DNA from: Spirochaetia bacterium
GTDB taxonomy: Bacteria; Spirochaetota; Spirochaetia; SZUA-6; Bin103
NCBI GenBank assembly: GCA_965198005.1
Contig: CBDAOI010000004.1
Coordinates: 736,001-800,000 of the forward strand
Reading direction: 5' to 3'
Length of the DNA: 64,000 bases
The position numbers were made by a program, and so were the translations under genes. The notes below the pieces were generated by a model. The model ran no database searches. It saw only the letters and a program-made list of their open reading frames with translations, and had not been told where the DNA came from. The first letter of the stretch is position 1; every line of letters begins with the position of its first letter. This document shows positions 160 through 51,736 of the stretch, piece after piece.

Positions 160-789
160 ATGCCCGCCGCCCAAGCGAAGCGCCGATCCGCCATCCAGAT
201 GGCCAAGCGAGCCAAGCCGGTAGTGTTACCGCTGACGATGGTGCCGCTGGCGGTGGCGCTGATACGGTACCTCGGCGACCAGTTCGGGGCCAACCCGATC
301 GAGGCGTTCACGCTCGACACCGGCAACTGGGGCATCCGGATGCTGCTGATCACGCTCGCCGTCACCCCGTTGCGCGAGCTGACCGGCTGGAACTGGCTGA
401 TCACCTACCGCCGGCCGCTGGGGCTGGCAGCGTTCTACTATCTGTGCGTCCACCTGCTGGTCTACCTGTACCTGGACTTCGCGTTCGACCTGGAGTTCAT
501 CCTGATCGACGTCTCCACCTCGCTGTACGTAATCGTGGGGGTGGCGTCGTTCCTGCTGCTGATCCCGCTGGCGGTCACCTCCACCACCGGCTGGATCCGG
601 GCGCTGGGCAAGCGCTGGCGCTGGCTGCACCGGCTGGTGTACCCGGCGATCACCCTGGGCGTCGTGCATTACCTGTTGCAGGTCAAGGGTCTCAGCTTCC
701 AGCTCTGGTTCTACATCATCGCTGGCGGCGTGCTGCTCGCCTACCGGCTGGCAGCGCCGGCGCTGAAACGCGCCCGCGCCGGCAAGTAG
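160..789 (+). CDS. msrQ: Sulfoxide reductase heme-binding membrane subunit
   Basis: GANPIE, LAVTPLR, RRPLGL..FYY..H, LAVTS, W..LHRLVY motifs; start may be ATG 199. Confidence 0.9.
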   Translation: MPAAQAKRRSAIQMAKRAKPVVLPLTMVPLAVALIRYLGDQFGANPIEAFTLDTGNWGIRMLLITLAVTPLRELTGWNWLITYRRPLGLAAFYYLCVHLLVYLYLDFAFDLEFILIDVSTSLYVIVGVASFLLLIPLAVTSTTGWIRALGKRWRWLHRLVYPAITLGVVHYLLQVKGLSFQLWFYIIAGGVLLAYRLAAPALKRARAGK

Positions 790-876
790 CGCGCGCGCCG
801 TTCCCCCAGACTTGGTTGCCCCGCGCCGTGGAAGCGGGTACGTTTTTGCGTATCGGTAATTCATACAGGAGGAGAC

Positions 877-1092
877 ATGCATATCTCCGAGCGAGGTCAG
901 ATCACCATACCCAAGTCGCTGCGTGAACGGTTCGGGATGAACCACAATGTCGAGGTCGACATTACGCCGACCGAGAACGGGTTGCTCATACGCAAGCGAA
1001 CGACCGCCGAGCATCCGGTTGAACGCGTCTACGGGTTGCTTGGCCCCGGTGGGAACACCGACGACTATCTCGAGGAGATTCGCGGCAGGTGA
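877..1092 (+). CDS. AbrB/MazE/SpoVT-family antitoxin
   Basis: ISERGQITIPKSLRERFG motif; AGGAGG RBS; GTGA overlap with a PIN gene. Confidence 0.85.
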   Translation: MHISERGQITIPKSLRERFGMNHNVEVDITPTENGLLIRKRTTAEHPVERVYGLLGPGGNTDDYLEEIRGR

Positions 1093-1232
1093 TTACCGCA
1101 GTCGATACCAGCGTGCTGCTGGACGTGTTCCAGGCCGACAAACAGCACGGCCCATCGTCGAAACAGCGGCTGCGCAGCGCGTACGACCGCGGCGCCTTGA
1201 TCATCTGTGGAGCGAGTGCGGCTGCCGGTTGA
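1089..1232 (+). pseudogene. VapC/PIN toxin, N-terminal fragment only
   Basis: MITAVDTSVLLDVF...AYDRGALIIC, then unrelated sequence and a stop after about 47 codons. Confidence 0.75.
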
Positions 1233-1239
1233 GCGCAAG

Positions 1240-1604
1240 GTGCAGCTCGCGGTCCAGCTCCACGACCGGCTCAGCGACCCCTCGGGCACCTACCTGCTCG
1301 GCACCGATCAGCTCGGCCGGGACGTGCTGAGCCGGCTGGTGTACGGCGCCCGCACCTCGCACGGGGTGGGCTTTGCCGCCACCCTGCCGAGCACGCTGGT
1401 GGCGCTGCCAGTGTTTCGATGATCCGCCGCCGGCTCTCTCCCTGTATCCGGCTGCCCCCCGTGGCTGGCGCTGTGGCCCGGGATATGCCTGACGCTCATG
1501 GTGTACAGTTTCAACATGTTGGGTGATGCGATGCGGGACTTGCTCGACCCAAGGCTCAGGGGTGGTGGCGGTCGTCTCGCGGCCGATGCCGCCAGGGCGG
1601 TTTA
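1240..1604 (+). pseudogene. Dpp/Opp-type ABC permease (DppC-like) fragments
   Basis: YLLGTDQLGRDVLSRLVYGARTS followed, after a large internal deletion, by WLALWPGICLTLMVYSFNMLGDAMRDLLDPRL. Confidence 0.8.
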
Positions 1605-1680
1605 GATTTAGACGGGTCTAGACGGTTTGGACGTGCGTCTGATGGTACGCCGCACACAGGCGGCGGGAGAAACGCCGCCG

Positions 1681-2416
1681 TCACTGTGCCGTATAACCTC
1701 CGTCAATGACTAATTCCGCCCCGGTCATGAACGAGGTCTCGTCAGAGGCCAAGTACAACACACCATAGGCGATCTCTTCCGGCGTACCAAGTCTGCCAAG
1801 AGGGATTGTATGCAGTCCTCGTGTCAGAATCTCCGGGTCCTTCAGGGCCTCTTCGGTCATCGGGGTGCTAATACGGCCGGGGTGAATCGAGTTACACCGG
1901 ATGTTGTCTTTGGCGTGCTGTACGGCAGTTAACTTCGTAAACACGCGTACCGCACCCTTGGAGGCGTTGTATGCTGGAGCGCCTTGGGCGACCATGCCAG
2001 AGATAGACGAAATATTGACGATTGACCCACCACCGGCCCGGCGCATCGCCGGAATAGCGTATTTCGTCCCTAGAAAAACACCGGTGGCGTTCACTGCCAT
2101 CACGGCGTCCCAGAGTTCTTTGCTGGTCGCTTCGATGGCTTGAGTTCGCAGAATCCCAGCGTTATTCACGAGGATGTCCAGCCGGTCGTAGTTCGACTCG
2201 GCAGCAGCGACCGCTTGCTGCCAATCCTCTTCCTCGGTGACGTCGAGATGGATGTAAGTGGCTTCTCCACCGGCGCGGCGAATGTCTTCTGCAACCTGCT
2301 CGCCGGCGTCATCCAACACGTCTCCCAAGACGACCTTGGCGCCTTCGGTGGCAAAGAGCCTAGCCTCTGTGGCGCCTTGTCCACGTGCGCCACCGCTGAT
2401 GAGCGCCACTTTCTCT

Positions 2417-2430
<14 letters not shown>
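1681..2430 (-). CDS. Short-chain dehydrogenase/reductase (SDR)
   Basis: SGGARGQG, NNAG, YNASK catalytic motif, IDGG; start MGRLEEK at 2430. Confidence 0.92.
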
Positions 2431-5089
<2,659 letters not shown>

Positions 5090-5208
5090 CGTTCGCTCCC
5101 TCCATTGCGAAGATACGCGCCGGCACGCCCTCCCGGCAAAAGCGTTGCCGGCGGACTGCCTGCCCGTCCGGTGCTCTCCATGTCAACGCGTCTGGAAGTG
5201 CGAAAGCC

Positions 5209-30203: not shown

Positions 30204-30986
30204 ATGATCGCTACCCTGATCAACGCGGCGGCGGTGGTGGCCGGCGCCGCCATCGGCCTGCTGTTCCGCCGCTCGATCAACGAGTCGGCCCACGGCGAAC
30301 GCTATCGGACGGCGGTGTACGGCGGCATCGGGGTGATCACGCTGGTGATCGGCTTCCGGCTGAGCTTCGAGTCGCGCCAGATCGTGTTCCTCGCGCTGGC
30401 GGTGGCCAGCGGCGGGCTGCTCGGGGAGTGGTGGCGGATCGAGGACGGCATCACCCGCCTGGGCGGCGTGCTGCACCGGCTGGTGGAGCGCGGTCGGGGC
30501 GGTCGGGGCGGTCGGGGCGTGCACCGGGATGACGCCTCCGCCGGCGAGAGCGCCAGCGACAACGACAGCGCGCGCCAGGGGTTCGCCGCCGCTTTCCTGA
30601 ACGCCTCGGTGCTGTTCTGCGTGGGCGCGATGACGCTGGTGGGGTCGTTCCGGGCGGGGGCCGAGGGCGACTACGAGCTGCTGCTCACCAAGTCGGTGCT
30701 GGACGGCTTCATGTCGGTGTTGCTGGCGGCGGCCATGGGGATCGGGGTGGCGTTCGCCAGCCTGGTGATTCTGGTCTACCAGGGTGGGCTGACGCTGCTG
30801 GCCGGCACCCTGCAGCCGCTGGTAACCCCGGCGCTGCTGGCGGAGCTGAGCGCCGTGGGCGGCGTGCTGATCGTGATGATCGGCATCAACCTGCTGGGGC
30901 TGCGGCGGCTCCGGACCGCCAACTTCCTGCCCGCCTTCCCGGTCATGGTCGGGCTGGTGGCGCTGCAACCGCTGCTCCCGGGCTGA
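30204..30986 (+). CDS. DUF554-family membrane protein
   Basis: MIATLIN...FLNASVLFCVGAMTLVGS...KSVLDG...ANFLPA. Confidence 0.88.
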   Translation: MIATLINAAAVVAGAAIGLLFRRSINESAHGERYRTAVYGGIGVITLVIGFRLSFESRQIVFLALAVASGGLLGEWWRIEDGITRLGGVLHRLVERGRGGRGGRGVHRDDASAGESASDNDSARQGFAAAFLNASVLFCVGAMTLVGSFRAGAEGDYELLLTKSVLDGFMSVLLAAAMGIGVAFASLVILVYQGGLTLLAGTLQPLVTPALLAELSAVGGVLIVMIGINLLGLRRLRTANFLPAFPVMVGLVALQPLLPG

Positions 30987-31049
30987 GCGGGCGTGGCGGG
31001 CGCGCGGGGCGGCGGCGTGGCTGGGCGAGTTCGGGCCGCGGGACGGGCA

Positions 31050-31344
31050 GGCGGCGCTGGCGCTGGGGCTGCTGGTGGCGGTGTGCTACTTCCCGGCGCT
31101 GGCTGGCGGGTTCGTGTGGGACGACGTGATCTTCGCCGAGGAGCCGGTGATTCACTCACCGTCCGGCCTGCGCAGCATCTGGTTGGCACCGGCCGACATC
31201 AAGAACGAAGGGCACTACTGGCCGCTGGTCTACACCGGTTTCTGGCTGGAGCACAAGCTGTGGGGGCTGGCGCCGGTCGGGTACCACGCGGTGAACATCG
31301 TTTTGCACCTGCTGAACAGCCTGCTGCTGTGGCGGCTGCTGGTG
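31050..31344 (+). pseudogene. TMTC-like membrane glycosyltransferase/TPR protein, N-terminal fragment
   Basis: YFPALAGGFVWDD...HYWPLVYTGFWLE...GYHAVNIVLHLLN; cut by DUF222 fragment. Confidence 0.65.
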
Positions 31345-31596
31345 CGGGCGGCGCCGAGGTCGAGGCCGGTGCGCCAGTTGAGCCAGTGGGCGCAGGAGCG
31401 GAAGCCTTCCCAGCCGTGGCGGCGGTCGAACTACGCGTAGGTCACAGAGCAGGTCGCAGGTGGCGGCCTGGATGCGGGCGGAGAGTTCGGCGATGCGGTC
31501 GCCGAGCTGATCCAGGTCGAGCGGGGCGGCCGGCGCCGGGGGCGGGGCCGGTGGCGGCGCCGTGCGGGATGCTGATTGTTCCATGGCGGTTTCCAT
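31345..31596 (-). pseudogene. DUF222/HNH endonuclease N-terminal fragment
   Basis: LDQLGDRIAELSARIQAAT, then shifted frame FDRRHGWEGFRSCAHWLNWRTGLDLGAAR. Confidence 0.75.
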
Positions 31597-32001
31597 GGCT
31601 GTATGGTACACCCGGTTTTGGACGGGGCCGTAGGCGGCCGTGGCGGGCTTGGTTCGGCGATTTTGGAGTTTCGTGGCCGGATTGGGGTTGGCGGCCGCTC
31701 CAGCGCAGGCTAGGGCCCGGGTGCGGGAGATGGTGGCGTGGGTTGGCGCGGGGCCGCGGCGGGCTGTGAAAACCGTGTCAAGCTCCAAACGCCGCTCAAC
31801 AGCGATTTTTCGATTTTTTTGGAGAGAGCCCCGCGCCCGGTCGCACGCGCTCGCACCGCCCTGCGTGACACTTTGTCACCCCTGCGCTGCAATCGTCCTC
31901 CAAACCAGATCTTGCCCCTCTGATTCACTCAATACGAGACCTACACCCAATTGACAGGCAGCGGCCCGAAGGGCTCACTAAGGGCGACGTGACGAGCGAC
32001 G

Positions 32002-32709
32002 ATGAGTGACCTGCAGACGACGGCCGGCGAACAGCTTGCCGGGACCGTCAAGCCGTACCGGCGCCACGTGGTGGTGCTGACCGCGGCCGCCGACTGGCCG
32101 GCCCACCTGGAGGAAGGCTCCGGACTCGAGGCGGCTCTGCTGGCCGCAGTGAACGCCCACCCCGAGCGGCTCGCGGGAGTCAAGATTACCGCCGCCACCG
32201 GCAACCGCGCCGCCCGCGGGCATGACGTGCTGGTGTTTCCCGACATGGTGCGCTTCCGCGCGGTCGGCGCGGACGGTGCGGACGGAATCGAGGAGGACGC
32301 CGCCGCGCTGGTCGAGGACCACCTGCTGGGGGACCGGGTGTCCACCCGTCTGCAGAGCGAGCCGCTGGCGGGGCGGCACCTGTTCGTGTGTGTCCACGCG
32401 GCGCGTGATCAGCGTTGCGGCGACCACGGTCCGGGGCTGGCGGCGGCGCTGGAGCGCGAGTTGGAGCGCCGCGACCTCGATGACGTGGTGGTACGGTGCT
32501 CGAGCCACGTCGGCGGCCACCGCTTCGCCGGCTGTCTGATCGCCTACCCGGCCGGCGACTGGTACGGCTTGCTCGAGGTCACGCTCGCGGCGCGGTTCGT
32601 CGACCGGTGCCTGGTCCAGGACCGGATCATGACGGCGCATTGGCGCGGCCGGCAGGGGATCGACCCTGCCGTCCAACTGCAGGCCGCGAGCGGTTTCAGT
32701 TCATCCTGA
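32002..32709 (+). CDS. Sucrase/ferredoxin-like thioredoxin-fold 2Fe-2S protein
   Basis: FVCVHAARDQRCG and SHVGGHRFA motifs, WYG. Confidence 0.82.
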   Translation: MSDLQTTAGEQLAGTVKPYRRHVVVLTAAADWPAHLEEGSGLEAALLAAVNAHPERLAGVKITAATGNRAARGHDVLVFPDMVRFRAVGADGADGIEEDAAALVEDHLLGDRVSTRLQSEPLAGRHLFVCVHAARDQRCGDHGPGLAAALERELERRDLDDVVVRCSSHVGGHRFAGCLIAYPAGDWYGLLEVTLAARFVDRCLVQDRIMTAHWRGRQGIDPAVQLQAASGFSSS

Positions 32710-34032: not shown

Positions 34033-35775
34033 TTGACAAAGGTCGTCTCTATGTATACACTGAGCGTGGTGGCGACTATCCAAAAGAAGGTCTCCCGCGG
34101 GCGCACCTACTGGCAGATCGTGGAGTCCAGACGCGTCAACGGTAAGCCCCGTCCCATCGTCCTGGAGCACCTGGGCAGTGCAGAGAAATTGCTCCAGCGA
34201 CTGCGAGAATCTCCCGCGCGCCCGGCCAAGGCGAAGGTCATTCAGTTCGGTGCGTTGGCCGCGCTCTGGCAGATCGCCCAAGAGTTGGATGTGGTCGGCC
34301 TGATCGATGCGCAGGTGCCCAAGCGAGACCAAGGACTGTCCTGCGGGCAGTACTTGCTGTTGGCGGCGCTGAACCGCTGTGTGGCCGCCTCCAGTAAGGC
34401 TTCTCTGTATCAGTGGTATCGACGCACGGTCCTGAACCGGCTGCTCCCCACTGCGCAGCGTTCGCTCTGTTCTCAGCGCTTCTGGGATCACATGAGCATG
34501 CTCGACAGCGCTGCCATCGGCGCGATTGAGCAACAACTGGCCCAGCGGGTGATCGACCGCTACCGGATCGATCTGCGGCTACTGATCTTTGATGCGACCA
34601 ACTTTGATACATTCATCGACAGCCGCACCCTCAGCGAGTTGGCACAACGCGGCCCCGCGAAGAGCAAACGCGCCGATCTGCGGATCTTGGGCTTGGCACT
34701 CCTGGTGAGCTGCGATTACCACATTCCGCTGCTCTCCCACCCGTATCCGGGAAACCAGAATGACGCCGCGTTGTTCGCCAGCCTCACCGAGGCGCTGATC
34801 AGCCGCTGCCAGCAGTTGGCCCAGGAGTGCGACGATATCACGCTGGTGTTCGATGGTGGCAACACCTCCAGAGAAAATATCGAAGCGCTCCAAGCCAGCC
34901 CGTACCATTTCATCACTTCCTTGACCGTGACCTGGCACGAGGATCTGCTGGCGGTTCCCCTGAGCCGGTTTCACTCCTTCGATGACCCGCGGCTTGCCGG
35001 GGTGACGGCTTACCGCACCCACAAGGAGATCTGGGGTGAGCGCCGCACGGTGGTGGTCACCAACAGTCGCCGGTTACGGGAAGGGCAGCTTGCCGGTATC
35101 AACCACGCGTTGCGCAAGAAGCGCGCTGCACTGCGCGCGTTGCGGAGGAAGCTGGCGCGCAGCCAGAAACCGGGGGCATCGGGCAAAGGCTACAGCCGAG
35201 CATCCTTGCAGAAGCATTTCGACGCGATCACCTCGGGTCAGTACGTAGCGCAGATTCTCAAGATTCAGATCAGCGAATCCGACGGCGCACTCAGTTTTCG
35301 ATTTCACACCGATTGGGCAGCGTACCAGCGCTTGCAACGCAGGCGCTTGGGCAAGCGCATCCTGTGCACCGACAACGAGTCGTGGAGCGACCAAGACATC
35401 ATCTTGGCCAGCCGCGCACAACACCATGTGGAGCGGGCGTTCAAGCAGATGAAGAATCCCCACTGGGTGAGCTTCTCGCCGGCCTTTCACTGGACCGATC
35501 AGAAGCTGCGCGTACACGTGTTCTATTGTGTGCTGGCACTGCTGCTGAGCTCGCTGCTGCAACGCAAGGCGGCCCACGGCGGACACCCACTTACCATCGA
35601 GCAACTCCTGGCGGAACTCAGCGGCGTGACCGAAGTGGTCAACCTCTACGCCGCGCCTGAACAGGCCACCTCAACCAGAGGGCGCTACCGAGCCCAATAC
35701 GTGCTCTCTGAGCGCTCCTCCCTGCAAGACAAACTGTGCCGGCTACTTGACGTATACCAACACGCCCATCCCTGA
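34033..35775 (+). mobile_element. IS1634-family transposase
   Basis: YWQIVESRRVNGKPR, SQRFWDHM, FDATNF, FDGG, VERAFKQMK, HWTDQKLRVHVFYC; element ends not clearly resolved. Confidence 0.88.
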
Positions 35776-40046: not shown

Positions 40047-40343
40047 GTGGAAGTTTCCTTCCAATCGCGCAGGCTCCTCGGATGTTACCAGGAGTCGTCC
40101 CGGGCAATTCGTGAATGGGGCTCGGTCGTCGGCCGGCGTTACATACGGATCGTGAACGAATTGAGCGCACTTCCGACGTTCCCCGACCTGTTCTCGGTCG
40201 TCCGGATGCGTGCCCACCCGTACAAGAGTCGTCCTGGATCGTATGCGCTCGACATGACCGGGCGCTGGCGCCTGATAGTCCGGCAGGGCGAGAGGCCCGA
40301 TCAGGTGGTCGTAGAGGAGGTGAGCAACCATTATGACGATTGA
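40047..40343 (+). CDS. HigB-like (RelE/ParE family) toxin
   Basis: MEVSF...HPYK.RPGSYALDMTGRWRLI; toxin-first order before HigA. Confidence 0.8.
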   Translation: MEVSFQSRRLLGCYQESSRAIREWGSVVGRRYIRIVNELSALPTFPDLFSVVRMRAHPYKSRPGSYALDMTGRWRLIVRQGERPDQVVVEEVSNHYDD

Positions 40344-41415
40344 CGACCGTGGTGAGGTCTATTCCGATCTCGTCATCCCGCCAGGAGAGACACTCGCCGA
40401 CGAGATCGCTTCCCGTGGCATCAGCCAGACGGAGCTTGCGGCCCGTCTCGGACGACCCGTGCAGGTGGTTAACGAGATCATCCACGGCAAAAAGGCGATC
40501 ACCGACAACACAGCACTCGGCCTGGAGAATGTCCTGGGCATACCCGCAGCGTTCTGGGTCAACCTGGAGCAGAACTACCGGATGACCGGAGCCAGACTCC
40601 AGGAGCGGGACCGCCTCAAGGCCGAGGAGAACTGGCTCAAGGAACTCCCGGTCAGGGAAATGGAGAGGCGCGGCTGGATATCCGTCGGACGGAACCCCCA
40701 GGAGAAGATGCGCGCCCTGCTACAATTCTTCGGCGTCGCGAACGTGACCGCCTATCGAAAGACCACCGAGGTGCTCGGCTTTCGGATCTCCGACAAATCG
40801 AAGCTGTCCCCCGGTGCCCTGGCGGCGTGGCTGCGCAAGGGAGAACTTGAGGCGCAGACTATCGACACCCGCCCATTCGACTCTGCCTTACTCCTGGACG
40901 CGGCTCGCGCAGCCCGTACGATGACCGAACAGCCGCCGCTGGAGTTTGCCACGCGCTTGACGCAGCTATTCTCCGACGCTGGCGTGGCGTTGGTCGTGGT
41001 GCGCGAGTTACCCAAGACCGGAGCCAACGGAGTTGCCCGTTGGCTCTCCGACCGGAAAGCTCTGATCCAGTTGAATCTGCGCTACAAGTGGCAGGACATC
41101 TTCTGGTTCACGTTGTTCCACGAAGTCTGTCACGTCCTCAAGCACGCCAATCAGAAAATCATCATTGACGGCATCGACAAGAATTGGCCGTTTGAGGACG
41201 AGGCTAACCCGTGGGCTGCCGACTTCCTCGTGCCCCCTGATGCCTGGTCGCAGTTTTGCCGCAGGACACCGTTCAACCGCGGCAGCATTATTGCGTTCGC
41301 TCGGGAAATCGGGATAGCGCCCGGAATCGTCGTCGGACGCCTGCAACGCGAGCGACGTCTGAAGTATTCAGAAATGACCGATCTCAAGGTCCGATTCGGA
41401 TGGACAGATGAGTAG
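40333..41415 (+). CDS. HigA-type XRE antitoxin fused to ImmA/IrrE-like metallopeptidase domain
   Basis: PPGETLADE HTH...FWVNLE; FWFTLFHEVCH (HExxH), E.EAN. Confidence 0.88.
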   Translation: MTIDDRGEVYSDLVIPPGETLADEIASRGISQTELAARLGRPVQVVNEIIHGKKAITDNTALGLENVLGIPAAFWVNLEQNYRMTGARLQERDRLKAEENWLKELPVREMERRGWISVGRNPQEKMRALLQFFGVANVTAYRKTTEVLGFRISDKSKLSPGALAAWLRKGELEAQTIDTRPFDSALLLDAARAARTMTEQPPLEFATRLTQLFSDAGVALVVVRELPKTGANGVARWLSDRKALIQLNLRYKWQDIFWFTLFHEVCHVLKHANQKIIIDGIDKNWPFEDEANPWAADFLVPPDAWSQFCRRTPFNRGSIIAFAREIGIAPGIVVGRLQRERRLKYSEMTDLKVRFGWTDE

Positions 41416-41633
41416 CGCGATTTCCAAAATGGCTATTCGTCGCCAGAGATCGGCGGTGAGTTGGTTCCTCCTTTTTCCAAGCGTGCTATGTACTCGGAAG
41501 GTGCAGCCGGGAAGGCGAGTTGCTCACGTAGCGTATGGGTCATGCGGCCAACTCCGCGCGCGCCGCATCGCGGGCCGACCACGGTACGGGGTGTACGCCG
41601 TACGTGCGCATCGCGTCCAACAATAACGACCCC

Positions 41634-44779
<3,146 letters not shown>

Positions 44780-44908
44780 CTACCCCAGTGCGCGAAGCGA
44801 TTCGAGCCGAGCGAGCCACCCGGCGAAGTGACGGCACTCGTCCCGGATGCGGTCCAACCCGATGCGCTTTGCAACGGCCGTCCCGTGGCGAACCACTACG
44901 AAGATCAA
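44780..44908 (-). pseudogene. DUF4276-like protein remnant
   Basis: Only HGTAVAKRIGLDRIRDECRHFAGWLARL remains, downstream of the ATPase. Confidence 0.6.
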
Positions 44909-46028
44909 CGCGCCGGCCCGCCGCCGACGACCTCGGCTTTCCAGAGCTGCCCCACCGAGTACTCCTTCAGCCAGTCCTGCCAGACATCCGAATCCAACCT
45001 CTCGAACACTGACTCGCCATTTCTGCGGTTCACCACCACGACATCCTCCGGCTCGAACTCGCTGACCAAGTCCGCCGATTGCGTGGACACGATCACCTGC
45101 CGCGCCTCGCTTGCGCCTCGAACCATCTCCGCCAACAGCTTCAGCGCGAGGGGGTGCAGCCCCAGCTCGGGTTCGTCGATGATGATCGGATCGGGTTGCA
45201 GCTCCGGCGGCTGCCGCAGCAGCGTCGCCAGGCAGATGAAACGGAGCGTACCGTCCGAGAGCTGCAGCGGCCCCAGTGGTGTGTCCTGATCCTCCCTGTG
45301 GTGCCATTCAAGCTCGATACGCTCACCGACGTCCTTACGGTATACGAAATCGCCAAAGAACGGCGCCACGATCCGCACCGTCCGGACGACGTCCCGATGC
45401 CGGCGCGGATGGCGTTCGCGCAGAAACCGCAGAAACGGCGCCAAGTTGCTTCCGTCCGCCTTCAGCCGCAGATTGTCGCGCACCGCCTGCGGACAGCGCA
45501 CGCCCGCCACGTTACTCGTGTCGCGAAAGTGGTACACGCGCCAGTCCCTGATAGCCGGCAAGGCGTAGGCTGCAAAGGTACCGGCGTCGAGGCTCGCCGG
45601 ATGCGCTTCTCCGCGACCCCCTGACCATACGGCGCCCCCCTCGGCAGCGAGCCGCGTGCCGGCAGCCGCCAGCGCTGCCTCCTGCGGCACACCCGGAGAA
45701 AGCTGTTCCTCGCCGATCACCAGCCCGTCGCCCGCAGCCTCCGCCGAGAACCGATACTGGCAGCGTCCCCTCTCGAAGAACAGCTCCACCTCAAGGCTCG
45801 AAGTCCTCCTGCGCCCCCCGAACAGCACCGCATCCGGCCCGCCCTCCTGTTTGACAAAGACCTGAAGCCTTCCGCGAGCAAGCTGTGACAAGAGCCGAAA
45901 CACGCCGAGAAGGTTGCTCTTGCCCGCCCCATTGGCCCCGATGAGCACGCTAACTCCCGCAGCTCGAAGTTCTCCGGCTCACGAATCGATTTGAAACCGC
46001 GAACGGTTAGCCGGCCCAGCGTCGCCAT
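44905..46028 (-). pseudogene. AAA_21/RecF-SMC-like ATPase, frameshift near N-terminus (~45950)
   Basis: LTVRGFKSI then IGANGAGKSN in another frame; LSDGTLRF, IDEPELGLHP, STQS. Confidence 0.85.
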
Positions 46029-46094
46029 GTTCCGGTTGCCCTGTCATGCCCCGGCGCTGCCTCAGCGGCCGAATGATCTCGGTCAGTCGCTCCG

Positions 46095-47861
46095 TCAACG
46101 CCACCGCCACAGGTTCCCTCGAAGTTTCGGAATCCACTCTTCCAAGGCATCAAGCCATCGCATGCAATCCTCAGCCGTATCGCCAATGATGCCGGCGGAT
46201 ACGAGCGGTGACTCGGTGTTCCCTGTAGAAAGCGCCTTGCGAATCTCTTGCAGGATATTCTTTGTATTCTCTACACGGTACGCGAAAGAACCCGCGACGA
46301 AGTACGGATCGCCGCCCGGATACCTGGCGTTCTGGTGACGTGCCGCACTCAACGAGATCAGTATCTCAAGCTTGTCGAACAAGAGCGTGTATTGTTCGTC
46401 GTTCGAAACAAAATCTCTGGCTGACTCTCGTAACACTTCACATATCCAATCGTTAAGCGGGGCTTCCCTCCTTTCCATCCCCTCCAGTCTCCTTGCATCC
46501 TGCCCAATTCCATCATACATGCCGAACGGCGGAAGCAACTCCACTGCCGAAACATCCTCATGACGCTGCCGAATCGGTGTCGCGAATAAATACTCGAGAA
46601 AACCAAACCGCTCTGCCTCCACGGCTCCTAGACCCAAGGCGTAGAGGAGGAGAGTCCCAGGATATCGTTGCATGCCTAGCCAGAATCCCCGGCCGTTGCC
46701 CCCGAACGGCGACAATCTTGACAGGGCTCGTCGCCAAAGTGGGAAGTGGTCCTCCTCGGCCCAATAGCCGCCGATAGGCGCCATGGCGAGCAACGTCGAA
46801 CAAGCTGACTCGTAGCCGCGTGCACGTGCGGTCGCCGATTCGGTAGTGACAGCCGAAGCTCCGCTGACCGCGTAATCCCCACCGGACGTAGCCTCGATGA
46901 CCCGATCGACCGTCGCGTCAATGAGATCCGATAGCTGAATACGGTAACGTCGCTCGGAGACAAATCGCTTCAAGCTCGAAACGGCGGCTTCGACCGATAA
47001 CGGGTGCGGTCTCGAGAATTCCTCGATCGACTCGACGTACTGCTGAACATCGCGGAAAAAAGCGTCTGCACCCTCGATGCGGATCGTCTGTGCGCCGCGA
47101 TGGTCGATCAGTCGCCGCGCCTTGTCGCTCTCCTTTCCGTGCAGTGTCCAGTACGTGGCGAATCTCCGCGATCGAGCACGCAAGATGGCATTTCGCAACG
47201 CCTCGTCCCACTCGGCCGACCAGCCGCACACGACTAGACCAAACTCGTCAAGAATCCGATCGATCAGCGTATCGTATACGGCAGGATAGGACGAGAGTTC
47301 GGCCTGCGTGTTTCGAATACGCGTATCGAGATAGTCACCATGTACCTTGAACACGCAGCACCGTGTGTGAACGATCGGAACCGCTCCCTGCACTTGATCC
47401 GGAGAACTGAGAACTGCAGGTACCACACCGGCGTCGTTCAATGCGGCTTCCATCAAGCGGTCGAAATTCGTGGTTATGATCACTTTGACGAAGCCTTGCG
47501 CGCTCAGCGCCGCGACCGAACGATGCGCGGCTGTCGGCTGCTTCCAGCCATCTTCTCGCTCGCGTTCGTCTGGCTCCCAATACGCCCGCAACAACTGCTG
47601 CCGCTCGGCGGGCGTCTTCGCTATGGCGTCGAGAAGATCGGAGTATTCTGGCGCCGCTCCGAACCGGTCCCGGTACCATCGCTCGGGATCCGGTTCACAG
47701 GTCTGCTTGCTGAGAGCCGCGAGCTTGCGGATCAAGTCGAGGGTGATGTCCCAACCTGTCGGGATCTTCGCCGCCCGTGAGACGCCCGAACCAAGGAGAA
47801 CGGCGTAAACGCCCGGGTTGGCCTGCATCGAGAATGCGAGCGACTGGACCGGATCAATCAA
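46095..47861 (-). CDS. SIR2-domain protein
   Basis: LLGSGVS, ITTNFD, FKVHGD, VVCGWS in the N-terminal half; unrecognised C-terminal half; overlaps hsdS stop. Confidence 0.88.
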   Translation of the reverse strand: MIDPVQSLAFSMQANPGVYAVLLGSGVSRAAKIPTGWDITLDLIRKLAALSKQTCEPDPERWYRDRFGAAPEYSDLLDAIAKTPAERQQLLRAYWEPDEREREDGWKQPTAAHRSVAALSAQGFVKVIITTNFDRLMEAALNDAGVVPAVLSSPDQVQGAVPIVHTRCCVFKVHGDYLDTRIRNTQAELSSYPAVYDTLIDRILDEFGLVVCGWSAEWDEALRNAILRARSRRFATYWTLHGKESDKARRLIDHRGAQTIRIEGADAFFRDVQQYVESIEEFSRPHPLSVEAAVSSLKRFVSERRYRIQLSDLIDATVDRVIEATSGGDYAVSGASAVTTESATARARGYESACSTLLAMAPIGGYWAEEDHFPLWRRALSRLSPFGGNGRGFWLGMQRYPGTLLLYALGLGAVEAERFGFLEYLFATPIRQRHEDVSAVELLPPFGMYDGIGQDARRLEGMERREAPLNDWICEVLRESARDFVSNDEQYTLLFDKLEILISLSAARHQNARYPGGDPYFVAGSFAYRVENTKNILQEIRKALSTGNTESPLVSAGIIGDTAEDCMRWLDALEEWIPKLRGNLWRWR

Positions 47862-49398
47862 GGCGTTCCTCCATGAATCGGTTGGTCCGCAATTGACCCG
47901 CGATCAGCCGCGGCAACAGGGTGTCGCGTATCCTGGATACACGGCGAGACTCGCAGGCCGCCGCGCTAGCGCGGGCCATGACCGACTGAACTATCTTCCC
48001 GAATGCTTGAGCGACGCGTGCTGAGGGACTGATGCACATGAACTGCGACAGCGCTTGTGCAGGCACGCGCTGTCGTCCACTCGTCCCCGACATGTTTCTT
48101 ATGAGAAACTCCCGAAAATGAGGGCTGCGAGCGAGACAATAGCCGAACTCTGTCGGAAGCGGCGGTCTTGGCCGCATGACGATGTACTCCGTCGACCCCC
48201 AACCTATAGCTCCGGACTGCAGAAAGTCTACGTAGGCCGTTTTTCCGTTCTCCAGACACGGTGTAATGCGCGCCACCAGGGTATCGCCGCTCGTGAATCG
48301 CATCCCGGATCCATAAGGCCTATCGACTACCGTATGAGGTGTGTGTCCCGTTGTCGGCATGTTCGCCATGTCCAGGTACGTTGCCATCTGTCCCTTCCGC
48401 AACCGCCGCGTCGGGTTGACGTCGATTATGTTGCTCAGTGGGGCCACTTCCCATCCTATTGGGACTTCACCAGTTTCTGACTCCACGAGCCGGCAGGGGA
48501 AGAGACCGACGATGTCCTTGGGCAAACCGGTGTCGCGGCCTTCCATCTTGGCGCGCACGGGGTCGAAGTCGACGAACCAGGACTTGAACAGTGCCCGCGC
48601 CAGCGCCTCCAGCGTCGCGTTCATCCGCCGGTTCAGCTCCATCTTGTCGTCGAGAGTGCCGAGAACGTGGGCGATAGCGCGCTGTTCGCCAACGGTCGCC
48701 GGGATGCGTACGATCTCTTCATGTAGGTGGTTCCGGTTTATGCCGGGAACTGCTGCCTTGTCCGAACACGACGAGAAGTCGAGTGATCTCAGGAAGTAGC
48801 TGATGAACCGAGGATCGTTTCCCTTGAAGTCTCGAACGTACAACGCGGTATTAAGGGGCCAGAAGGCGTCTGGGATGAAGAACACCTTCCCCAGCGTGCC
48901 ATATCGACCGGTCACAACCCCCGGACCCGGTACCCTACTCTCGGAGTGATAGTCTGTGACCCCCGATGAGGACACGACCGGCACAGCGCCCTCGACGCGT
49001 CTATGCTTCGGCAGGTCGTAGCCACGCTTGAGCGTAATCACTTCGCCCAATGTAGTCTCACGCCATCCATCGCTGTCGATTCGTTCCGTATCGCCGCCGA
49101 ATACCGAATGCTCGGCCTTGATCCCGTCGCGGAACGACTCCGGCACTTCATCCCACACAAACAGGTCGACCCGGAACGGCAGGTTGCTGTCCTCGAACGC
49201 CTCCCGCAGATCGCCCACTTGGCGCCGCTGTTCCGGTGTAGAGAACACCACTAGGTCAAGATCGGACCGCGGGGTGGAGGTCCACTTCGCCCGGGAGCCG
49301 TAAACCCAGGCTGTCGTACCCGGCAGATGCCGTTCCAGCAGGGCAAGAACGGTACTGCGCTCCGCCGCCGTGATGTCGATAGCCGGGTCTACTCCCAT
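47854..49398 (-). CDS. hsdS: MNT nucleotidyltransferase fused to type I RM specificity subunit
   Basis: N-terminal GSRAKWTSTPRSDLD and LPFRVD; then two TRDs, EQRAIAHVLGTLDDKMELN helix, RDTLLPRL. Confidence 0.9.
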   Translation of the reverse strand: MGVDPAIDITAAERSTVLALLERHLPGTTAWVYGSRAKWTSTPRSDLDLVVFSTPEQRRQVGDLREAFEDSNLPFRVDLFVWDEVPESFRDGIKAEHSVFGGDTERIDSDGWRETTLGEVITLKRGYDLPKHRRVEGAVPVVSSSGVTDYHSESRVPGPGVVTGRYGTLGKVFFIPDAFWPLNTALYVRDFKGNDPRFISYFLRSLDFSSCSDKAAVPGINRNHLHEEIVRIPATVGEQRAIAHVLGTLDDKMELNRRMNATLEALARALFKSWFVDFDPVRAKMEGRDTGLPKDIVGLFPCRLVESETGEVPIGWEVAPLSNIIDVNPTRRLRKGQMATYLDMANMPTTGHTPHTVVDRPYGSGMRFTSGDTLVARITPCLENGKTAYVDFLQSGAIGWGSTEYIVMRPRPPLPTEFGYCLARSPHFREFLIRNMSGTSGRQRVPAQALSQFMCISPSARVAQAFGKIVQSVMARASAAACESRRVSRIRDTLLPRLIAGQLRTNRFMEERLD

Positions 49399-49805
49399 GT
49401 CGCTCCGCTCATGGTCTGGTAGATGCCGATCGCGTCGTCTATGAAGTCAGGGACCAGTGCGAGGCAGTTTAGCGCTTTCTCACCGTCGTAGTCGTGTGAC
49501 GTGTCGATCCGAGCATCGGCGTAGCGCAGCCACCGCTCCGACGGCGATGCGAGCAGGTGGTTCTCATGGGCGAGCCTGAAGATCGGCTTGGGGCTGTTGG
49601 GTACTTCCGCGACTCCCAGTTCCTCGGTGAGATACCTCTTCAGAACCTTCCACAGGCAGTCGTAGCAGGTTTCAAACCGCTGAATGACCGATTCCGCGAT
49701 TCCCTCACGGTCCAGCTCGGAGCGCTCATGACCGCCGTGTTGGTGGTTGTCGTACTGCTCCTCCAGACGCTTGAGCGATAGCTGGAACTTGTCGTACTCG
49801 ATCAT
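49389..49805 (-). CDS. HEPN / nucleotidyltransferase substrate-binding family protein (HepT-like toxin)
   Basis: [27 protein letters not shown] (RX4HXY); ATGA overlap with hsdM stop. Confidence 0.85.
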
Positions 49806-50345
49806 CCGCGGTCTCCATTTGACGTTCCCTGGCTGCCCGACACGCTGAACCCGAGCGTCTTCAGATTCTCGGCGATGGCGGTGTCGAGGCGTGCTCCGTC
49901 GGCCTGCTGAACTTCCAGCTCTGCGACCAGCCGCCGCATTTTCTGCTCGAACGGCTCGCGGTCGTCTTCCGGCACCTCCACTCCGACGTAACGTCCGGGC
50001 GTGAGCACGTGGCCGTGCTTGCCCACCTCCTCCAACGTCGTGCTCTTGCAGAAGCCGGGAATGTCGGCGTAGTCGCCGGCCGCTTTTTCTCCACGCCATG
50101 CATGGTAGGTGTCGGCGATGCGGGCGAGGTCGTCTTCGGTCAGCTCCCGGTGAGTTCGGTCTACCATGCGGCCAAGCTTGCGAGCGTCGACAAATAGCAT
50201 CGCACCGCGTCGGTCGCGGAACTTATCGCGTTGGCGGTCTCGCGCCAGAAACCAGAGGCACGCGGGGATCTGCGTCGAGTAGAAGAGCTGGCCTGGCAGC
50301 GCAACCATGCAGTCGACCATGCCTTCGAAGATCGCTGAAGGAGCG
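49802..50345 (-). pseudogene. hsdM: Type I RM methyltransferase, C-terminal fragment only
   Basis: [40 protein letters not shown]-binding and NPP motifs absent. Confidence 0.85.
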
Positions 50346-50349
50346 ACAG

Positions 50350-51615
50350 TCACGATACCTGTTCCTGACGTCCGGTAGCCCACTCGCCGGCGCGCATCAC
50401 CGGTTCGGTGGAGCCGTCGGCGAGCACGCCGTCGAGGTCCAGCCGGTCGGAGCCGATCATGAAGTCCACGTGGGTGGCGCTGGAGTTGGCGCCGGCGGCC
50501 GCGAGCTGCTGTTCCGACATGGCGTCGGCTCCGCTGAGGCATACCGTGTACGCTTGGCCGAGGGCGAGGTGGCAGGAGGCGTTCTCGTCGAACAGCGTGT
50601 TGTAGAACAGCCGGCCGAGGGCTGCAATGGGAGAGCCGTGCGGCACCAGGGCGATCTCGCCCAGGCGGGCGGCGCCGTCGTCGGTCGCGATCAGTTTCTC
50701 CAGCACCTCGGCGCCGGATTCCGCCTCGATCCGGACGACTCGGCCGCGCTCGAAGGTCAGGCTGAAGTTGTCGATCAGCCGGCCGCCGTAGTTCAGCGGC
50801 TTGGTGGACGCTACCGTGCCGTCGACCCGCCGGCTGTGCGGCATGGTGAATACCTCCTCGGTGGGGATGTTGGGGACGAACCGGGTGCCCTGGGCGTTGT
50901 GGTCGATGCCGCCCTTCCAGACGTGGCCGTCGGGGAGGCCGACGGTGAGGTCGGTGCCGGGCGCGGCGTAGCGGAGCGCAGTGTAGGCGCGCCGGTTCAG
51001 GTGCGCGCGCCGCGCCTCCAGCGCGTCGACGTGGCGGCGCCAGGCTGCGCGCGGGTCCGGCTGGTCCGCCCGGCAGGCGCGGAAGATGGCGTCCCACAGC
51101 CGGGCTACCTGCTGATGCGCCGGCGCTTCGGGAAACACCCGTGCCGCCCAGGGGGCGACCGCGGCCGCGATCACGCACCAACTCACGCGCATGGTGGTGA
51201 CGTAGTCGCGACGGAAAGGTCTCACGTGCTCGGAAGCGACGCGCAGGGTGGTCGCCACGCGCGCGGGATCCTGGTCCTTGAGCAGGTCGGGATTGCCGCC
51301 GACCACCGTGAGAAACGCCGCGCCCTGCTCGGCGCGCTCGATCAGGCCCCTGACGCGCCAGGTAGGGTACTCCTCGAACGAGTCGGCCGGCGCGTGCTCG
51401 AATCGCACCAGCTCCAACTGGTCGTCGCTGTAGGAGACGTCCACGTAGGGGCAGCCGGCGTCGTAGGCGCGTGCCGCCAGCGCCCGGCTCAGCTCGACCG
51501 CCGCGATCGGTGCGCGGATGACCAAGCGCTGCCCGGGCTGCAGATTCAGGCCCACGCCGATCGCCAAGTCGGCGTAGCGCTGCAGGTTGGTCGTCACGGC
51601 GAGAGTGTAACGCAT
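50350..51615 (-). CDS. M29-family aminopeptidase (AmpS/PepS-like)
   Basis: [37 protein letters not shown]. Confidence 0.93.
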
Positions 51616-51736
51616 CCGGCATCGCCTATATTTCCCCGGATGGGATATTCGTGCGACATTTCTTCGCCATTATCCACCGCAACGAGGGCGCAACGTCCTC
51701 GAACAGACTGAGGGGCGACCCCCGAGGAGGATAACA

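Follow-up and report, generated by a model that had tools for sequence, protein, structure and literature searches.

A HEPN-MNT pair related to type VII toxin-antitoxin systems, with the MNT domain fused to HsdS, in a decayed type I restriction-modification operon

Introduction

In the HepT/MntA systems of Shewanella oneidensis and Aphanizomenon flos-aquae, a HEPN toxin carrying the motif RX4HXY is paired with an MNT protein carrying GSX10DXD, and the toxin is neutralised by AMPylation of the tyrosine of RX4HXY (PMC7641770). In the HEPN-MNT module of L. pneumophila, the MNT poly-AMPylates Y105 of the HEPN, in which Q44 and E47 are Mg-site residues (PMC11586414). An MNT-first gene order is reported as almost universal for MNT-HEPN dyads (PMC3710099). 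HI0073/HI0074 of Haemophilus influenzae is described as a two-protein nucleotidyltransferase (title of the PDB entry, and a title in the reference list of PMC11586414). PrrC/EcoprrI is a HEPN-superfamily RNase encoded inside a type I restriction-modification (R-M) cassette and has been suggested to act as a second-line defence once restriction has been blocked (PMC3710099). These papers agree with the background given in an earlier note on the DNA studied here, namely that MNT proteins AMPylate the Tyr of RX4HXY (PMC11586414, PMC7641770) and that PrrC is linked to type I R-M (PMC3710099).

Here we analyse a locus in a window of 64,000 nucleotides from a Spirochaetia bacterium. In the window, as in most related loci, a HEPN gene is placed between hsdM and hsdS, and the MNT is the N-terminal domain of HsdS. 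Motifs, profiles and predicted folds relate this HEPN-MNT pair to type VII toxin-antitoxin systems. We assign a probability of roughly 60% to the reading that the locus represents, in decayed form, a type I R-M operon variant that is widespread and horizontally mobile, hsdM-HEPN-MNT::hsdS-hsdR, in which HEPN and MNT would most likely function as a type VII-like toxin-antitoxin pair of the HI0074/HI0073 type, built between hsdM and hsdS. Environmental bacteria often have this layout, which appears not to have been studied: no description of an MNT-HsdS fusion with a HEPN was found in the literature searched, which together with the homologue counts below bears out a guess in the earlier note that the fusion is common in annotations and uncharacterised.

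Results and Discussion

Organisation and Decay of the Locus

The HEPN, MNT-HsdS and SIR2-like genes are intact (Table 1); hsdM, the ATPase gene and hsdR carry lesions. The hsdM frame matches only residues 373-544 of the full-length HsdM proteins of two related loci (L010 and L020; tblastn) and corresponds to Pfam N6_Mtase positions 204-309 of 311, so that the 5' two thirds are missing. It adjoins the complete M29 aminopeptidase gene, a housekeeping gene with which the island ends on its upstream side. hsdR is recognised by TIGR00348 at E 1.5e-168 and by PADLOC REase_I at E 2.7e-302 over residues 6-992, and the match of its homologues moves to another frame from 41804 to about 41640. The ATPase gene matches HEC-01A at E 3e-111 (PADLOC), with homologue alignments split over two frames. 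A functional type I R-M system has an intact cognate hsdM and an intact cognate hsdR; the window copy has neither, and with hsdM truncated and hsdR frameshifted its R-M part is dead. The earlier note had missed this decay, which extends to the ATPase gene.

Table 1. Genes and domains of the locus, with positions in the window.
Feature	Position	Strand	Support
HEPN gene, 138 aa, HI0074 / NTase_sub_bind family	49389..49805	minus	Pfam PF08780
Fusion ORF MNT-HsdS, 514 aa	47854..49398	minus	PF18765 + PF01420
MNT domain, residues 1-101 of fusion	49096..49398	minus	PF18765, PF01909, PDB 1no5
Linker, short and flexible, residues 102-107 of fusion	49078..49095	minus	pLDDT <50
Complete HsdS: TRD1, central helix, TRD2, C-terminal helix	47854..49077	minus	PADLOC, AF2, Foldseek
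hsdM 3' remnant, about the last 172 of ~546 residues	49802..50371	minus	tblastn, Pfam N6_Mtase
SIR2-like gene, intact, 588 aa, directly after MNT-hsdS	46095..47861	minus	PF13289 SIR2_2, PDC-S65
AAA_21 / HEC-01A-like ATPase gene, frameshifted near 45900-45970	44905..46028	minus	PF13304, HEC-01A
hsdR, frameshift ~54 codons before end, near 41804	41540..44779	minus	TIGR00348, REase_I
M29 aminopeptidase gene, complete	50350..51615	minus	PF02073, E 4e-157, profile positions 3-406/406

The MNT-HsdS fusion is not an assembly artefact. Metagenome contigs identical to the window and derived from other runs (X1, X3, X5; two studies) span the MNT/HsdS junction, and the HEPN/MNT overlap is likewise spanned by window-identical contigs from other runs, one of the contig-supplying runs possibly being the window's own source. 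A stop or frameshift between MNT and HsdS, which the earlier note had named as evidence against its proposal, is absent: the fusion is in frame, and these contigs bridge the junction. The junction between the hsdM remnant and the M29 gene is spanned by identical or near-identical contigs (50043-50405; X1 and X7), and the frameshifted ATPase gene has an identical sequence in the X1, X3 and X5 contigs, which cover at least 45463-46670. For the hsdR frameshift near 41804, no confirming contig was present among the matches listed. The decayed state, a truncated hsdM beside an intact pair, is present as DNA in runs from three studies.

The HEPN Protein and the MNT-HsdS Fusion

The HEPN protein matches Pfam PF08780 (NTase_sub_bind) at E 7e-22 and 78.2 bits, against a cut-off of 31.8, and falls under the cut-off of NCBIfam TIGR01987 (HI0074; 54.7 versus 55.8 bits). 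RIDTSHDY at residues 99-106 fits RX4HXY (R99, H104, Y106), and a Q42-x-x-E45 motif is present. Profile searches matched PDB 1jog (HI0074) at E 1e-11 (profile A4) and the L. pneumophila HEPN 8xdj at E 1.2e-4, Q42/E45 lying opposite Q44/E47 and R99/H104/Y106 opposite R98/H103/Y105 in the latter alignment. The gene is adjacent to its partner in the order HEPN 5', MNT 3', its stop lying 10 nt inside the fusion ORF (overlap 49389-49398). The 138-aa HEPN gene with RIDTSHDY and the overlap of its stop with the 514-aa ORF were already described in the earlier note and hold on re-analysis (ORF 49389-49805, PF08780). The overlap with the hsdM stop described there stands as well, as ATGA at 49802-49805 shared with the HEPN start codon, except that the upstream hsdM-like frame is a 3' remnant only. 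The numbering of HI0073 and HI0074 suggests the MNT-first order.

In the fusion, PF18765 (Polbeta) covers residues 28-96 and PF01420 (Methylase_S) residues 110-264. The MNT domain is above the cut-offs of both PF18765 and PF01909 and under that of the NCBIfam MntA_antitoxin equivalog (30.9 versus 60 bits). From residue 34 it reads GSRAKWTSTPRSDLD, which fits GSX10DXD (residues 34-48), and G34, S35, D46 and D48 are invariant among the aligned homologues. The domain matches HI0073 (PDB 1no5) at E 4e-13 and 36% identity, and Foldseek aligned its predicted structure with 1no5 and with the MNT antitoxin 8xeo (TMt 0.85 for each). The AlphaFold2 (AF2) model of the fusion (mean pLDDT 89.2) comprises the MNT at residues 1-101, a low-confidence linker at 102-107 and an HsdS part with two TRDs and two long helices (236-276 and 460-499). 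Within the MNT, helices are found only at 11-24, 55-70 and 87-96, and a C-terminal alpha-4 helix is absent.

The HsdS part matches PADLOC Specificity_I PDLC03089 at E 2e-110 (residues 111-506, positions 4-436 of 446), and in the Foldseek search of the fusion HsdS structures ranked first (1yf2 and 1ydx at E ~1e-15), with further HsdS matches to 5ybb_D, 7vs4_C and 2y7c_A. Two TRDs parted by two conserved helical regions are present, as in ordinary type I HsdS, and over the region in common the fusion is 64-73% identical to unfused homologues of 407-413 aa. Unlike these, the fusion adds an N-terminal putative nucleotidyltransferase domain of ~101 residues with an intact catalytic motif. The suggestion of an N-terminal MNT with an exact GSX10DXD, fused in frame to a complete two-TRD HsdS, therefore agrees with the motif, PF18765 and 1no5 matches for its first part and with the PADLOC profile, AF2 and Foldseek for its second.

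Among the described systems, the pair resembles that of L. pneumophila (8xdj, 8xeo, 8xeh; PMC11586414) in architecture: that HEPN is ~139 aa long with QxxE and RX4HXY at aligned positions, and its MNT is short (~100 aa), lacks helix alpha-4 and shares the fold. The sequence similarity is low, however (the HEPN match given above), and the L. pneumophila MNT is free, whereas in the window the MNT is a domain of HsdS and the pair lies inside an R-M operon. HepT/MntA shares the two motifs but has a HEPN of family DUF86 instead of PF08780 and the reverse gene order; weak profile matches to 5yep_B and 6m6u_B were obtained (E 2-3e-3). The alpha-4 helix, which MntA needs for binding according to PMC11586414, is the one missing from the AF2 model of the window MNT. 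HI0073/HI0074 (1no5, 1jog) are the closest solved relatives of both partners and share PF08780, but form a free two-gene pair without a link to HsdS.

Spread of the Fused Operon

Of the 120 best homologues of the fusion protein, 99 have an N-terminal GSX10DXD; the other 21 are unfused S subunits or proteins without the motif. An MNT-anchored scan of one genome per species yielded 470 pattern matches and 435 relatives, and the best 80 of the 435 were analysed; many of the loci lie in long-read MAGs, in which frameshifts are frequent. These best 80 (63-81% identity) belong to Acidobacteriota, Latescibacterota, Rhodothermales, Nitrospira, Binatia, Opitutales, Spirochaetia, Alpha- and Gammaproteobacteria and others. 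GSX10DXD is kept in all 80 of these best 80 of 435, the MNT ORF is at least 450 aa long in 60, and in 63 a single open frame runs through MNT and HsdS. In 69 of the best 80 of 435 (68 by script, plus L074), the MNT start coincides with the end of a HEPN homologue, nearly always with the same 10-nt overlap, and an intact HEPN of exactly 138 aa is present in 53, with RX4HXY in 50 and QxFE in 47 of those 53. The survey proposed in the earlier note, of how often MNT-HsdS occurs beside a HEPN, thus gives a fusion in 60-63 and a HEPN directly upstream in 69 of the best 80 of 435 loci. HsdM is 76-81% and HsdR 75-80% identical across phyla, and these values point to spread of the whole cassette by horizontal transfer.

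Since the cassette moves horizontally, a single ancestral fusion could explain many loci. The arrangement might then be a frozen accident, in which a selfish HEPN-MNT pair inserted itself between hsdM and hsdS, MNT and HsdS became joined when a stop codon was lost, and the neutral fusion was carried along by the mobile cassette without functional coupling. The linker, which varies in length and sequence among homologues, would agree with this, as would the free-standing pairs of the same clade, which have the HEPN-first order and the overlap of the fused loci. Such pairs without HsdS make up 7 of the best 80 of 435 loci (L019, L036, L050, L052, L074, L085, L086), and hsdM remnants are present at L036 and L052. 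Nevertheless, we regard an accident as very unlikely. At least three MNT sequence classes are fused to HsdS (...KWTSRPQSDLD, ...NGRSHDGSDLD and ...TWTAKDYSDLD), and an equivalent layout on the Zymomonas mobilis plasmid pZMOB01, annotated as a plain S subunit, is only 31% identical. Moreover, a clean arrangement of an MNT stop followed by a separate hsdS did not occur among the best 80 of 435 loci, every unfused case among these 80 having a premature stop, frameshift, insertion or truncation.

Loss of Toxin and Antitoxin

A HEPN-anchored metagenome scan gave 221 relatives, the best 80 of which were analysed. In all 80 of these best 80 of 221 loci an MNT match begins at the HEPN end; 51 of the 80 matches lie in ORFs of at least 480 aa, 12 are short and 17 are cut off by the contig end. 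An intact HEPN beside a broken MNT was seen only in L113, 206 nt from the contig end. Among the 63 fused loci of the MNT-anchored scan, eight have no close HEPN, and all eight keep GSX10DXD. Scars of the HEPN 3' end are clear in four of the HEPN-less fused loci (L031, L046, L055 and L081), L081 retaining an in-frame stump of the first 25 and last 15 residues; L062 has a weak HEPN trace. HEPN-deleted derivatives that keep MNT-HsdS thus exist, and the reverse state was seen once. The loci follow the pattern that a toxin never occurs without its antitoxin and that an antitoxin may outlive its toxin, in two samples both biased by anchoring: each scan started from one of the two partners and was cut to its 80 top-scoring loci, so the asymmetry of loss is partly built in. 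With this limit, the comparative data fit toxin-antitoxin logic.

Retention of the GS/DxD motif in all eight of these loci could also be expected if the pair were a two-subunit nucleotidyltransferase with a role other than toxicity. The HEPN would then be the subunit that binds the substrate, as was originally suggested for the closest solved relatives, HI0073/HI0074, and the S-tethered enzyme would tune restriction by nucleotidylating another target, for instance an R-M subunit, DNA ends or a phage protein. Seven triple fusions HEPN-MNT-HsdS, which have Asp or Glu in place of the acceptor Tyr and keep the MNT motif, favour this account and are awkward for a simple toxin-antitoxin reading. In L. 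pneumophila, R98A and H103A are reported to have hardly changed RNase activity, the motif being suggested to aid ATP binding (PMC11586414). We consider this role improbable, however, because the deletion scars beside an intact MNT-HsdS better fit a dispensable toxin than an essential subunit. All 29 of the 29 aligned homologues have E45, R99, H104 and Tyr106, and conservation of Q42 is at least 90%, as would be expected of an RNase that is a target of AMPylation, and the tested relatives act as toxin-antitoxin pairs (PMC11586414, PMC7641770).

Proposed Function and Link to the R-M Complex

We infer toxicity, RNase activity and AMPylation from relatives that match at E 1e-4 (8xdj) to 1e-11 (HI0074). 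On the type VII-like toxin-antitoxin reading, the HEPN would be an RNase toxin, and the MNT domain would bind it and AMPylate Tyr106, as its counterparts do in L. pneumophila and S. oneidensis. If production of the S subunit stopped, by loss of the operon or shut-off of host expression, the cells would lose the neutraliser, because the antitoxin is part of HsdS. With the neutraliser lost together with the S subunit, the module would stabilise the R-M cassette (addiction), and it may add an abortive-infection layer. The HEPN-first order, opposite to that of the usual dyads, and the scores below cut-off for both the MntA_antitoxin and the TIGR01987 models speak against this reading.

PrrC, an anticodon nuclease that a type I R-M enzyme keeps latent, has its own ABC-ATPase sensor domain and is not known to have an MNT partner. 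As the earlier note proposed, a guard of comparable effect could be imagined for the fused operon. The HEPN would be silent only as long as MNT-HsdS sits in an intact M2S1(R2) complex, and anti-restriction proteins, loss of HsdM or HsdS, or stalling of the enzyme would set the RNase free, so that infection is aborted. In favour of such a guard, the subunit around which the complex nucleates carries the antitoxin domain covalently, the fusion persists through TRD swaps and in different phyla, and the module lies inside an R-M operon in most loci, with hsdM of at least 450 aa upstream in 61 and an hsdR homologue downstream in 51 of the best 80 of 435. There is also the precedent of PrrC/EcoprrI, and a role as back-up suicide RNases has been suggested for HEPN genes linked to R-M (PMC3710099).

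We nevertheless find such a guard unlikely. In the window, HEPN and MNT-HsdS are intact even though only the last third of hsdM is left and the closest other HsdM that the genome encodes is only 38% identical. As the pair is intact without HsdM, and this state occurs in runs from three studies, a lack of HsdM would seem to be tolerated if the pair is expressed at all; the window copy, as read from its genes, argues against a strict need for HsdM. The pair also stands free of R-M genes in the 7 of the best 80 of 435 loci named above, the linker is short and flexible, and contact of the MNT with the HsdS body was not evident in the AF2 model. Unlike PrrC, the 138-aa HEPN is a single PF08780 domain without an N-terminal ABC-ATPase (Pfam) or other PrrC-like sensor, the control element here being an enzyme domain fused to HsdS. 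If the guard were real, the MNT tether would bring the HEPN to the methylase/restriction complex, a type VII switch would read the state of that complex, and many environmental bacteria would possess a PrrC-like abortive-infection layer made from different parts.

Persistence of the pair in a decayed locus is a single case, in which the SIR2-like gene is intact too. That gene matches the PADLOC candidate defence profile PDC-S65 at E 8e-206, and full-length homologues occur at the equivalent position in L031 and L081.

An MNT Domain Is Fused in Frame to a Type I Specificity Subunit

All the genes at issue are encoded on the minus strand. The HEPN ORF was matched by PF08780 (E = 7e-22; 78.2 bits, cut-off 31.8) and carries its RX4HXY motif as RIDTSHDY at residues 99–106. 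Its ATG shares nucleotides with the stop of the upstream hsdM frame in an ATGA at 49802–49805, and at the other end the MNT-HsdS ORF starts before the HEPN stop, with an overlap of 10 nt. The MNT motif of the fusion reads GSRAKWTSTPRSDLD; the domain matched HI0073 (PDB 1no5, E = 4e-13), and residues 111–506 were covered by the PADLOC type I specificity profile. An AlphaFold2 model based on 43 fused homologues (mean pLDDT 89.2) comprises an MNT domain with three helices and without alpha-4 (residues 1–101), a linker at 102–107 with pLDDT below 50, and a full HsdS part that contains two TRDs, its long helices spanning 236–276 and 460–499. Searching Foldseek with this model returned HsdS structures as top matches (1yf2, 1ydx, 5ybb_D, 7vs4_C, and 2y7c_A), and its N-terminal domain resembled HI0073 and the MNT antitoxin 8xeo (TMt 0.85 for each). 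The sequence observation of the earlier note, a HEPN gene overlapping an MNT domain fused to HsdS, was thus borne out in every detail by Pfam, motifs, overlaps, HI0073, PADLOC, AlphaFold2, and Foldseek.

Features of the HEPN/MNT-hsdS locus in the window and of the related operon on plasmid pZMOB01 (NC_017180.1, loci L188/L189) of Zymomonas mobilis ATCC 10988
Feature	Replicon	Position	Strand	Remarks
DDE transposase gene	window	34033–35775	+	PF01609; about 6 kb past hsdR
HTH_3 + Peptidase_M78 gene	window	40333–41415	+	ImmA/IrrE-like; adjoins hsdR on the opposite strand
hsdR	window	41540–44779	-	frame change near 41804 (41640–41810), about 54 codons before the end
AAA_21 / HEC-01A-like ATPase gene	window	44905–46028	-	E 3e-111; frameshift near 45900–45970, toward the 5' end
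SIR2-like gene, 588 aa	window	46095–47861	-	intact; PADLOC candidate PDC-S65, E 8e-206; directly after MNT-hsdS
MNT-HsdS ORF, 514 aa	window	47854–49398	-	PF18765 + PF01909 nucleotidyltransferase at residues 21–96; PF01420 Methylase_S at 110–264
HEPN ORF, 138 aa	window	49389–49805	-	Pfam PF08780 NTase_sub_bind, HI0074 branch of the HEPN clan
M29 aminopeptidase gene	window	50350–51615	-	complete; directly upstream of the hsdM remnant
hsdM	pZMOB01	30878–32470
'HI0074 family' gene	pZMOB01	3–392
'restriction endonuclease subunit S', 527 aa	pZMOB01	389–1972		RefSeq name of the fusion
hsdR	pZMOB01	1969–5154

Logan contigs from four sequencing runs of three studies, one run being possibly the source of the window itself, were compared with the window over 41500–51700. 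Identical contigs in runs X1, X3, and X5 bridge the junction between MNT and HsdS, and they also span the HEPN/MNT overlap and the hsdM stop with the HEPN start. These bridging contigs, together with the conservation across homologues, rule out an assembly artefact or a read-through error as the origin of the fusion. In all four metagenome runs, summed contig depth over 42500–43900 (part of hsdR) and 48320–48660 (hsdS TRD2) exceeded that of neighbouring genes by 100–1000 times; those communities appear to contain many related copies from other organisms.

The Fused Operon Is Widespread

Of the top 120 homologues retrieved with the 514-aa protein, 99 have the N-terminal GSX10DXD domain; the remaining 21 were mostly unfused S subunits of 353–423 aa, along with three longer proteins lacking the motif (418, 482, and 543 aa). 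Fused members share the same MNT and differ in TRD1. According to precomputed Pfam annotation, some S-subunit homologues have two MNT-like domains and others additional DUF559 / MTES_1575 (REase-like) domains (P0014, P0064, P0075; P0028, P0072).

A pattern scan derived from a 7-row MNT alignment, run on one genome per species, gave 470 matches, 435 of them relatives, and the best 80 loci were examined. These loci come from many phyla (63–81% identity) and all 80 keep GSX10DXD; an ORF of at least 450 aa runs from the MNT start in 60, and MNT and HsdS share one open frame in 63. A survey for the adjacent HEPN, as envisaged in the earlier note, found a homologue ending at the MNT start in 69/80 loci (68 by script, plus L074), nearly always with the 10-nt overlap. 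The HEPN was intact at exactly 138 aa in 53 of the 80, and among these 53 RX4HXY is retained in 50 and QxFE in 47. An upstream hsdM of at least 450 aa was observed in 61/80 and a downstream hsdR homologue in 51/80 of these best loci. At the 17 loci that were not scored as fused, the reading frame is affected by premature stops, frameshifts, insertions, or truncations. Seven of these 17 (L019, L036, L050, L052, L074, L085, and L086) carry the HEPN-MNT pair in free-standing form, with hsdM remnants persisting at L036 and L052. A clean layout of MNT, stop, and separate hsdS occurred at none of the best 80 loci. When 40 genomes related to that of the window were compared, close copies (78–81% identity) were confined to three genomes of a sister genus, which fits horizontal transfer. 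The operon form with the fusion is both conserved and mobile. A neutral 'frozen accident' seems quite improbable.

When plasmids were searched with residues 1–130 of the fusion, only three distant matches emerged, one of them in Zymomonas mobilis. The HEPN of pZMOB01 has the motifs QRFE and RNLTSHTY, and the S subunit is headed by an MNT with the motif GSRARWTAKDYSDLD. On this plasmid, whose host is cultured and non-pathogenic, the hsdM-HEPN-MNT::hsdS-hsdR operon is intact. Since the PADLOC specificity profile PDLC03138 takes in the MNT part too, as does the annotated pZMOB01 protein, the fused form is already in the databases, unremarked. The suspicion that such fusions are common in annotations is upheld by the counts of homologues and relatives and by their RefSeq name, and no paper on the MNT-HsdS fusion or its operon form was found in the full-text literature outside subscription journals, in agreement with the earlier impression that it is uncharacterised. 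The MNT-HsdS fusion is real, common, and uncharacterised.

Predicted Mechanism and Comparison With Known Systems

In a profile alignment to the Legionella HEPN, Q42/E45 of the window's HEPN fall on Q44/E47, and R99/H104/Y106 on R98/H103/Y105. The passages of PMC11586414 on the Legionella pair place the Mg-dependent RNase site at Q44/E47, and describe a short MNT without helix alpha-4 that poly-AMPylates HEPN Y105 and thereby blocks toxicity. HEPN residues E45, R99, H104, and Y106 are invariant in 29/29 aligned homologues, and conservation of Q42 is 90% or more; in the MNT, there is likewise no variation at G34, S35, D46, and D48. Because of this alignment and the invariant residues, HEPN is predicted to act as an RNase toxin, and the MNT tethered to the S subunit would AMPylate its Tyr106. 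A complex prediction for MNT 1–112 and HEPN (both with 29-row alignments) scored 0.00, which speaks neither for nor against binding. A non-toxin role, in which HEPN and MNT form a two-subunit nucleotidyltransferase, seems improbable to us.

The module most likely acts in the manner of a type VII HEPN-MNT pair, which it resembles in part: the motifs and the Pfam family are present, whereas the pair stays under the cut-off for the NCBIfam MntA and HI0074 models and has HEPN first. In HEPN-MNT pairs as treated in the relevant part of PMC3710099, the MNT is almost always 5'. The text of PMC3710099 on R-M-linked HEPN domains reports fusions to nucleases, helicases, and ATPases, though not methylases, and makes no mention of an MNT-S-subunit fusion. 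The window's module is no PrrC, since its HEPN, unlike PrrC, has no ATPase domain.

The Copy in the Window Is a Relic

Homologues of about 546 aa align with the upstream 'hsdM' over no more than their residues 373–544, and the match of Pfam N6_Mtase to this remnant extends over positions 204–309 of 311. Contigs in runs X1 and X7 span the junction of the remnant with the M29 gene at 50043–50405. The ATPase frameshift site is spanned by identical contigs in X1, X3, and X5, and because contigs of other runs have the same sequence the frameshift is probably real and no assembly error; the hsdR frameshift site lies outside the clean contig pieces listed. Neither a second HEPN nor a second MNT copy was found elsewhere in the window's genome, and the nearest candidate for a partner HsdM is only 38% identical and belongs to a different family. 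As hsdM is truncated, hsdR is frameshifted, and the other HsdM is so distant, the locus cannot be a working R-M system, and this copy is a relic.

A further hsdM remnant lies in the window's genome (G000:C4:1500195-1500751; HsdM residues 38–80, N6_Mtase positions 237–310). No tRNA genes were found at the island borders (30000–60000 examined). The HTH_3/Peptidase_M78 gene may be a regulator or a component of the island. At L031 and L081, where the HEPN gene is deleted, full-length SIR2-like homologues occupy the same slot as the one in the window.

The earlier note had suggested that the HEPN RNase is silenced only by an intact R-M complex, as in a PrrC-like guard. The module does sit within an R-M cassette, and the MNT is tethered to the subunit that nucleates the complex, which lends the idea some appeal. 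However, the window's pair persists without HsdM, in DNA present in runs of three studies, and the same pair occurs free of R-M genes elsewhere; moreover, the modelled linker is short and flexible and leaves the MNT without contact to the HsdS body. We therefore consider such a guard unlikely, even though it could be squared with the HsdM-less window if loss of the hsdM promoter stopped expression.

Few defence and addiction elements are as common as type I R-M systems and HEPN-MNT modules. An enzymatic antitoxin covalently joined to an R-M specificity subunit would, if true, be a new coupling of two immune layers; alternatively, the link would make loss of the R-M cassette difficult. This architecture occurs often, with 435 relatives from one narrow pattern search of one-genome-per-species data, and the intact copy of pZMOB01 in a cultured host makes both the toxin-antitoxin and the guard reading directly testable. 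The biological weight of the window itself is smaller, because its R-M part is already broken.

Losses of HEPN and MNT Are Compatible With a Toxin-Antitoxin Pair

A HEPN-anchored scan of metagenome contigs gave 221 relatives, and in all of the best 80 that were examined an MNT starts at the HEPN end (51 ORFs of at least 480 aa, 12 short, 17 running off the contig end). An intact HEPN beside a broken MNT occurred among these 80 at L113 only, 206 nt from a contig end. The three identical metagenome loci L148, L152, and L157 combine a HEPN whose motif reads RIDTANDY (His to Asn) with a disrupted MNT, in which an insert containing many short repeats breaks the domain past the DLD motif. A close HEPN is absent from 8 of the 63 fused loci of the MNT-anchored scan, and the MNT motif is retained in 8/8. 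The last 11–14 HEPN codons are left at L031, L046, and L055, and at L081 an in-frame stump remains that joins the first 25 to the last 15 residues; a weak HEPN trace is left at L062, while L053 has a distant HEPN instead, and L028 and L061 have none. In the window, as a single case, the HEPN/MNT-HsdS pair is intact amid decaying neighbours. Counted in scans that were each anchored on one partner, over the best 80 loci and with frameshift noise in many MAGs, these losses fit the logic of a toxin and its antitoxin.

Seven homologues are triple fusions HEPN-MNT-HsdS of 666–676 aa (P0021, P0024, P0025, P0029, P0034, P0036, and P0037), in which Asp or Glu replaces the acceptor Tyr; P0021 lacks the His as well. 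Going by these substitutions, they do not appear to fit a simple toxin-antitoxin reading, and they hint that the HEPN-MNT module is open to rewiring.
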